Shown here: positions 20,584 to 21,495 of the stretch, in pieces | Position numbering within the stretch: the stretch's first letter is position 1 | How the letters are laid out: every line of letters begins with the position of its first letter | Assembly: GCA_963706715.1 (NCBI GenBank) | Contig: CAVPNI010000002.1 | Location: 384,001 to 448,000 of the forward strand | Source of the DNA: an uncultured Verrucomicrobiae bacterium | GTDB lineage: Bacteria > Verrucomicrobiota > Verrucomicrobiia > Chthoniobacterales > Xiphinematobacteraceae | Direction: 5' to 3' | Length of the DNA: 64,000 bases | Position numbers and translations under genes: made by a program | The notes under the pieces: generated by a model | Database searches by the model: none | What the model saw: the letters and a program-made list of their open reading frames with translations, nothing else | What the model was told of the DNA's origin: nothing

Positions 20584-21495
20584 TTAAAAGAGGCATACGG
20601 CAGCGCTGGTAGTCCAGGCGATTGACAAAATTAATAATACAATTGCCGCCGATCGAGAGCAATCTTCACTTACCGACTCGCTCTCATAGAGGTGATCGAG
20701 CTTAGCAATTAAACTATTAGATTCCCACCTTTTCGCGCGTTCTACTGAATCAATCAGCAAAGAAATAAAAACAGTCCGTACCAACGTGGGGAGTTGTCGG
20801 AGCTTCACCCAGAAGTGACGACTCGATACTAATCCCCGAGCACAGCAACCGTTATGTACTTGTTTGAGTTGTTCACGGAAATCCGACCATAAATTCAAGC
20901 AAGAGATCACAATCGCCAGATTCCATCCGCGAGCACCGATTAGTCGAAACAGGTGAACCCATGGTTGAGGCGATAACGTCAAACCGGCGGTGCTGGTTTC
21001 CTTTAGGAGTCGCTGGCTACGCCAGATTCTTTTAGAAGCCTGACTGAAAAAAGATTTCATTTGCAATTTCCAGCTTCTAAAAGAAACCGACGAAGTCGGC
21101 GGAGGAAGTCCGTTGCAAGCAAAGTACTTTTTCATCCACGAATTTCTAAGAGAATCAGAGGAAGTAAAAAAAACAGACGAAGTCTGCGTCGCTAAAAACA
21201 TTGCACCTAGCAGAGCCAGTCGTGCGACAGCGAAAATAGCTGCACAAACGCCATTTGTGACGGTATAGCCATGTTCTGCTCGTAGCAGAAATCCCCAAAT
21301 AAAAATCAATGAAATAGCGATTGGTAAAAGTACCACATAGGAAAATCGGACGAATTGCCGTAGTCTTCCTTGGACACTCAGAACAACCATTACAAACAGA
21401 AGTCCAATCAGTAATAAAAAAGATCTATTTACTATAAAGGCACCTAAAGTGCCTATTAGACATGCTAATGCACGAATAGCTGTTGACATCACCAC
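20584..21495 (-). CDS. Probable ECF transporter T component carrying an in-frame repeat insertion
   Basis: TM-rich protein between the S components and the ATPase, with an ARG motif (CARG); hydrophilic insert matching family A. Confidence 0.7.
   Translation of the reverse strand: MVMSTAIRALACLIGTLGAFIVNRSFLLLIGLLFVMVVLSVQGRLRQFVRFSYVVLLPIAISLIFIWGFLLRAEHGYTVTNGVCAAIFAVARLALLGAMFLATQTSSVFFTSSDSLRNSWMKKYFACNGLPPPTSSVSFRSWKLQMKSFFSQASKRIWRSQRLLKETSTAGLTLSPQPWVHLFRLIGARGWNLAIVISCLNLWSDFREQLKQVHNGCCARGLVSSRHFWVKLRQLPTLVRTVFISLLIDSVERAKRWESNSLIAKLDHLYESESVSEDCSRSAAIVLLILSIAWTTSAAVCLF
20992..21187. repeat. Family A element, copy A4, inside a CDS
   Basis: ctggtttcctttaggagtcgctggctacgccagattcttttagaagcc closely matches 50179-50226; also contains ttctaaaagaaaccgacgaagtc. 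Confidence 0.9.

Follow-up and report, generated by a model that had tools for sequence, protein, structure and literature searches.

A repeat-derived, in-frame insert in an ECF transporter gene of an uncultured Verrucomicrobiae bacterium

The Rickettsia palindromic elements RPE-1 to RPE-10 are short, lineage-specific palindromic repeats found both between genes and in frame within conserved genes, and the parts of the literature consulted describe gmk as an example in which the in-frame element is translated and active (PMC10969869, PMC2229807). Inserts at one and the same site may vary in make-up, as the consulted parts of two further papers describe for RPE-4/6/7 and for a PheT insert of 63-84 bp (PMC1779305, PMC3767692). 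A second relevant group is the intragenic REPs, whose clusters can encode 43-82 amino acids and often supply stop codons; the verrucomicrobium O. terrae has the largest number of them, of the GTAG type; families with a CGTC tag are not listed for Verrucomicrobia in the portion of that source available (PMC3733652).

We analysed a window of 64,000 nucleotides (the whole stretch presented above) from a genome of 3.04 Mb (G000), together with genomes of its sister species (G002) and of a same-genus relative devoid of the repeat family at issue (G001). An earlier sequence-only reading had proposed that an RPE-like element lies in frame within a transporter gene of this window. We describe the gene, the insert and the family to which the insert belongs, here called family A, and set them against these known systems.

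The transporter gene and its insert

The insert lies in the third of four genes transcribed from the minus strand.

22129..22788, minus strand: ECF S-component 1, upstream of the EcfT gene (CD3073-like, under the family cut-off)
21503..22201, minus strand: ECF S-component 2, upstream of the EcfT gene (CD3073-like, under the family cut-off)
20584..21495, minus strand: ECF transporter T-component gene (EcfT/CbiQ fold, 301-303 aa), host of the insert
19348..20577, minus strand: fused two-domain ABC ATPase, downstream of the EcfT gene

The EcfT frame runs for 303 codons without a stop. Pfam and NCBIfam give its product no direct name, and a word-based homologue search with the full protein returned only the protein itself. 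A profile built from three empty (insert-free) homologues recovered 196 relatives at E<=0.001, among the best 150 of which only the window protein and one other matched in two separate stretches; where named, the relatives carrying this gene family are titled Verrucomicrobia. The earlier assignment as a probable ECF T-component is borne out by a profile from 118 homologues that reaches a solved EcfT at E=2e-13, by matches of 36 of those 118 members to Pfam CbiQ (PF02361), and by the neighbouring genes, two S components and an ABC ATPase in S-S-T-A order. The AlphaFold model of an empty homologue has a pLDDT of 93 and its top 13 Foldseek rows are all ECF T/CbiQ chains (best E=0.002); at E<=0.001 Foldseek gave no match for this model or for that of the window protein. 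The protein resembles described EcfT/CbiQ (PF02361; PDB 4HZU, 5D3M) in its five transmembrane helices and coupling helices, its ARG motif and its S-S-T-A operon, and differs from them in belonging to a divergent subfamily that falls below the Pfam cut-off for the genus, in its fused ATPase and in 67 extra amino acids at the end of transmembrane helix 4 (TMH4). The single DNA sequencing run covers the operon by two 151-nt pieces of an S gene. Elsewhere in the window, 17382-19355 encodes a predicted 657-aa membrane protein in which a 39-aa coiled-coil repeat occurs four times, almost perfectly conserved (the G001 homologue has fewer repeats), and 23384-25015 encodes a metallophosphoesterase whose N-terminal segment of about 64 aa is duplicated.

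The insert, whose boundaries are uncertain by 1-2 codons either way, and its parts are as follows.

20986..21186, minus strand: in-frame insert relative to empty homologues, 201 bp = 67 codons, Q102-A168
20987..21012, minus strand: extra worn arm at the other insert end (6 bits), aligning with intergenic copies
21011..21101, no strand: central dimer with inverted arms 21011-21039 / 21073-21101 and a 33-nt core (modules of 56 and 31 bits)
21113..21188, plus strand: second module, worn (about 10 bits), closed by a GAA mini-hairpin (21174-21186)

In an alignment of 120 full-length homologues, fragments and fusions excluded, the segment spanning the site measures 6-7 residues in 118 rows, 47 in the sister species and 74 in the window protein, and the insert is therefore counted as 67 codons. 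The block of about 65 codons read earlier from the letters (QTSSVFF...RLLKETS between LGAMFLA and LTLSP, at 20992-21187) was thus correct within two codons, and the clean gap anticipated in homologues is there. That repeat-free relatives might share the segment had been named as grounds for rejecting an insertion; 118 of 120 lack it, and its DNA is that of an intergenic family. The frame stays open across the insert, as claimed, and the gene's own frame is the only open one of the six.

The insert peptide is hydrophilic and basic, with 11 K/R and 2 D/E. Profile mapping to solved EcfT places the site at the C-terminal end of TMH4, and the insert-bearing stretch is equivalent to the TMH4 end for which the available part of PMC4820897 describes a Ser/Thr-rich motif. 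In the AlphaFold model of the window protein, pLDDT is mostly 87-97 in the flanks (71 in one block) and 48-75 in the insert.

At the DNA level, the insert is 83% identical to the intergenic copy at 50166-50345 over 99 nt (score 72) and 88% identical to that at 49116-49214 over 83 nt (score 65), the maximum over 200 shuffles being 23. The match to these two loci reported earlier (the former as 50170-50343) accordingly stands above all shuffles; it is modular and not full length, the best other genomic copy aligning over about 110 of 205 nt. The description of the element as palindromic likewise fits in part: the arms of the central dimer are 79% complementary, whereas the whole insert folds no better than its shuffles (z -1.56). 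Rfam gave no match over the insert. The right arm of the central dimer terminates in a GAA mini-hairpin with a 5-bp stem (21087-21099). The outer edge of the second mini-hairpin, at 21174-21186, coincides with the insert boundary, and that second module (family D1) matches 21078-21101 at 88%; it reads as a probable tandem addition to the dimer.

Family A in the genome and its entry into genes

A 76-nt model of family A identifies 393 modules in 226 clusters in G000, compared with one match in the reversed genome; for 15 of the clusters the score is below 20 bits, and some few of these belong to another family. The unit is a module of 60-75 nt consisting of a core of about 35 nt and an arm of about 27 nt, the arm terminating in a hairpin with a 5-bp stem and a GAA loop; a dimer measures 91 bp. 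Single modules make up 127 of the 226 clusters; dimers have their arms outward in 46 cases and inward in one, and tandem arrays with periods of 27, 56 and 91 nt are common. In the GAA mini-hairpin 96.8% of cells are paired and 21 changes are double-sided, and none of 500 shuffles reached either value, a covariation that in so short a hairpin can also be obtained without selection, through template switching and relatedness among copies. The 243 near-full modules share on average 66% identity in pairwise comparison, and their best non-local matches have a median of 84%; family A is therefore old. Of 178 near-full modules, 54 are open in the frame used by the EcfT insert, and the only recurring peptide is an 8-residue arm motif; in the 18 clusters of at least 200 nt, 3% of frames are open. 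Besides the insert, the window holds the following copies.

7886..8020, no strand: dimer, giving the adjacent, presumably TrpB-like, gene its last 10 codons and stop
12660..12754, no strand: intergenic copy, dimer
12929..12984, plus strand: intergenic copy, single module
31442..31524, no strand: dimer, giving the adjacent gene its last 11 codons
41367..41435, plus strand: worn single module, 20 bits
49116..49214, no strand: intergenic copy, worn dimer
50166..50345, no strand: intergenic copy, three modules; the corresponding site of G002 holds a cluster of different construction

The family is lineage-specific. Of 61 genomes of the order that were searched, two contain a 23-nt arm pattern (186 times in G000 and 8 times in G002), as do three contigs of one metagenome, and the family A model gives 51 matches in G002 and none in the 2.46 Mb of G001. 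Our literature search, with most subscription papers outside its scope, found no description of the family.

Entry into genes was assessed with our own gene caller (2412 genes in G000) and 1758 gene pairs with G001 as the reference. Internal segments were longer in G000 in 231 instances, of which 5 held a module match of at least 15 bits, with no reversed control reaching 6 bits; one of the five is the separate family B described below, and a small lipoprotein with an in-frame family A linker was added on inspection. The genome-wide count of in-frame copies that the sequence-only reading called for thus comes to 5 of the 226 clusters (about 2%), in the genes for EcfT, an ActB-like subunit, PrmA, a DUF697-like protein and the lipoprotein. 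The first four are insertions in conserved genes that outgroup homologues do not have; in the lipoprotein, the repeat stands in place of a linker about as long. The ActB-like protein, by its domain content an alternative complex III subunit, carries a clean 33-34-aa insert in a linker (G000:C2:365701-365771) that is missing from G001 and G002, as well as two more short, unexplained insertions. The PrmA linker (G000:C3:686488-686561) has family A inserts of identical site and frame in both species, short in G002 (7 bits) and a longer composite in G000; its G001 counterpart is longer than that of G007 and has a faint, unscored arm-like stretch. A search of G002 with the query used did not recover the DUF697-like gene.

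Among 16 span or split candidates relative to G001 we saw no orthologue broken by an out-of-frame copy: four are the in-frame genes, one is the lipoprotein and the other 11, for which 11 G001 frames were inspected, were set aside as weak family B matches, as shadow frames or as stop-to-stop frames extended at the 5' side. In a genome that is about 86% coding, family A is strongly depleted within genes and what is present there are a few frame-preserving survivors. In another 44 genes the final 5-22 residues and the stop codon are encoded by family A, and for 39 of these tails there is a G001 orthologue, the repeat starting at most 15 residues from the orthologue's end in 29; these tails are weaker evidence, because C-termini vary anyway.

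We looked for what might move the family. The EcfT insert, which is likely old, is flanked by no target duplication of more than 3 nt. G000 offers no empty site of family A, all 6 empty-site pairs found being of family B. What module pairs within 2.5 kb enclose are host genes or IS copies whose ends differ from the modules, and no autonomous element or transposase bounded by family A arms. A search for a small GIY-YIG nuclease gave one match each in G000, G001 and G002, the frames being 516-536 aa long and presumably UvrC-sized, and none in a further genome, G003. The RAYT/Y1 transposase (PF01797) is absent from G000 and four genus genomes, one of them 73% complete. IS630-like ends with TA were seen inserted into family A copies, with no shared ends. 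IS families are numerous in the genome, MITE families with TA ends number at least two more, and several of these elements likewise sit in family A copies; of 193 B/IS701-type ends, 11 lie within 25 nt of a family A cluster, compared with 1% of the genome. The window also contains a Group II intron 3' domain (59848-59951, Rfam RF00029), and a 485-aa protein family with 11 copies may be the reverse transcriptase of this intron.

Family B is a separate MITE of 82-83 bp, with target duplications of 6-8 bp in 30 of 41 full copies and inverted ends that match those of a 351-aa transposase gene, which we take to be IS701-like. Representative copies are these.

G000:C1:254814-254893: family B
G000:C1:551715-551797: family B
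G000:C1:686760-686841: family B
Window, approximately 49237-49320: family B

An element with its duplication spans about 90 bp, or 30 codons, and lies in frame in three genes; one encodes a glycosyltransferase-like protein and another, judged from its N-terminus, what we assume to be a BioD-like protein. A possible origin of family A as a worn MITE, derived from or carried by family B and spread by its DDE transposase, strikes us as somewhat unlikely. It would account for the 27-29-bp inverted arms of the dimers and for the family A model picking up B copies at 17 bits, and family B, which has target duplications and transposase-matched ends, occurs also in G001, where family A is lacking. The likeness of the two families is nevertheless not significant: their consensus sequences, with cores that look similar, score 30.5 against each other, under the maximum of 39.5 among 500 shuffles. 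The family A model also finds nothing in G001 despite about 200 family B matches there, the EcfT insert has no target duplication, no transposase bounded by A arms was seen, and the 127 single-module clusters are not two-ended elements.

Age of the insert and state of the transporter

The sister species has a syntenic EcfT orthologue (S-S-T) that is sister to the window gene in the tree (100/99), an empty gene being the next branch to the pair. It carries a 40-codon, 120-bp insert at the same site and in the same starting frame, recognised by the family A model at E=0.0012 (19.5 bits). Between the two species, the EcfT flanks give dN 0.31, dS 1.15 and dN/dS 0.27 with a Nei-Gojobori script; they are under purifying selection, weaker than that on the empty paralogue pair (0.19) and the S genes (0.14 and 0.16). 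Given this ratio at such a dS, and a family insert in both species, it is likely that the insert dates far back, has been tolerated and was enlarged afterwards. Sharing of sites extends beyond EcfT: for 11 of the 23 sites examined in G002, G000 has a copy in the orthologous position (for one of the 11 the flanks map to two places), against 7% (340/4824) of gene ends. These 23 distinct sites derive from the 30 best loci of the 51 matches and one earlier locus. Module make-up differs at the shared sites, and cross-species empty sites are too diverged for their junctions to be read. Insertion continued after the split, since 12 of the 23 sites are unshared and the ActB-like insert is found in G000 only.

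The simplest reading is one old insertion, selected to stay and enlarged later. We assign a probability of about 70% to the full account, in which a non-coding, lineage-specific hairpin repeat made a single ancestral in-frame landing, was tolerated and grew afterwards. A family A copy would have landed in frame once, probably in the common ancestor of both species, and would have been tolerated as a cytoplasmic loop at the TMH4 end; the insert then likely grew by local addition of modules, presumably through slippage or re-insertion, with selection presumably keeping frame-preserving changes only. The repeat would be a selfish passenger and not an evolved domain. Its spread between sites may have relied on a trans-acting enzyme that recognises the GAA mini-hairpin in single-stranded form, along the lines suggested for REP-type repeats, which is our best guess, at even odds. 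We infer that the insert is translated and that the transporter folds and works. A further proposal seems possible, with the odds against it: that a CGTC-like repeat acts as a lasting growth point of proteins, an in-frame copy going on to acquire and exchange modules (from 40 to 67 aa in EcfT, and likewise in PrmA), and supplies tails in dozens of genes, that the ECF transporter works with 67 new residues at the junction of membrane and coupling regions, and that the enzyme involved is new to such repeats.

Whether the gene is still maintained deserves closer attention, as G000 also has a near-identical pair of paralogous ECF operons whose T genes are empty (C2:374614-378315 and C3:490158-493859). 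The insert could be real and old while this operon copy is now redundant and decaying, its latest growth being tolerated since the transporter no longer works. Several features point this way besides the paralogues. Residue R215, in the motif before ARG, is present in 83% of distant homologues and in G002 and is C in the window protein; the second Walker A of the fused ATPase reads GAGKRS where three homologues have GKST; that ATPase shows 48 private changes against 12-23 in the three homologues, although it may also be the most distant of these four; and EcfT has the highest dN/dS among the G000/G002 pairs measured. The first nucleotide-binding domain of the ATPase is degenerate in all four homologues, and in the ARG region of the window protein A217-R218-G219, R251 and W255 are kept. 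We judge decay unlikely all the same, as the four operon genes are full length with open frames, a dN/dS of 0.27 is far below 1, and a three-way distance split puts most of its excess on the G002 branch (about 0.33 vs 0.19). Moreover, just 3-6% of frames are open over clusters of the insert's length, so that growth free of selection would in most cases have disrupted the reading frame. A decaying gene with a frame open by chance had been offered in advance as what would overturn the earlier reading; the dN/dS and dS values and the presence of an insert in both species make it improbable for the past, and leave decay in the present day as the form of it that keeps some probability.

Because the two EcfT inserts cannot be aligned end to end and differ in length and make-up, there is room for independent hits on one preferred codon, each younger than the split, as the unshared sites and the G000-only ActB-like insert would allow and as the consulted part of PMC3767692 states for RPE-4/6/7, yet this is very unlikely, for it needs two coincidences (EcfT and PrmA), the empty paralogues with a similar site stayed empty in both genomes, and the wear of both G002 inserts (19.5 and 7 bits) is what one would expect of old copies.

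Comparison with described repeats

The EcfT insert adds a Verrucomicrobia lineage to those in which selfish repeats supply new protein sequence. It comes with natural controls, namely the empty paralogues in G000, a relative that lacks the repeat, and the sister species, whose insert at this codon is shorter, and makes a tidy case for how much foreign sequence EcfT tolerates at the TMH4 end and how such inserts grow. The general picture is unchanged: in-frame repeats, same-site variation and repeat-coded C-termini are already in print, and in-frame repeats are described for several lineages, among them Verrucomicrobia (Opitutus) in the portion of PMC3733652 consulted.

Bacterial MITEs fused to ORFs (ERIC/RU-1 and the 107-bp Correia element), as far as the consulted part of PMC2229807 describes them, share with family A the inverted arms, which the latter has in its dimers, and the internal and C-terminal gene fusions. 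Unlike them, the EcfT insert has no target duplication or TA ends, and family A, for which we found no autonomous partner, is mostly one-ended or in tandem.

The likeness to the CGTC-tagged REPs is closer, within what the available portion of PMC3733652 describes. Read on one strand, a CGTC, TGTC or CCTC tag with a stem-loop is present in 103 of 167 family A arms, and CGTT in 52 more; dimers have their tags outside, in line with the 46 outward pairs against one inward; copies lie near gene 3' ends and often supply stops, clusters in ORFs are coding, and there is no dedicated transposase. The REP stem, however, is 8-9 bp from AT with a loop of 4-5 nt, whereas that of family A is an imperfect 7-bp stem with a 3-nt loop, a length fixed by our search pattern, and its first bases are GG in 89, AG in 42 and CG in 19 of the 167 arms, so that it matches none of the four CGTC families in print. 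Family A further adds the covarying GAA mini-hairpin, which overlaps the tag, and the conserved core of about 35 nt.

With RPEs, family A has in common intergenic and in-frame copies, lineage-specific spread, same-site inserts of differing make-up in orthologues and a mobilising enzyme that is unclear. It belongs to another phylum and is built of 60-75-nt modules in place of one element of 100-150 bp; it lacks a single conserved peptide, and translation is shown for the RPE in gmk, while for the family A insert it is deduced from sequence. The analogy drawn by the sequence-only reading, an RPE-like element in a different lineage, is supported in kind and not in frequency, the in-gene share of about 2% (5/226) being far under that of RPE-1/2/3, of which nearly half lie in genes. 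Family A therefore works like an RPE or an intragenic REP and is a member of neither, the RPEs having been compared by description.
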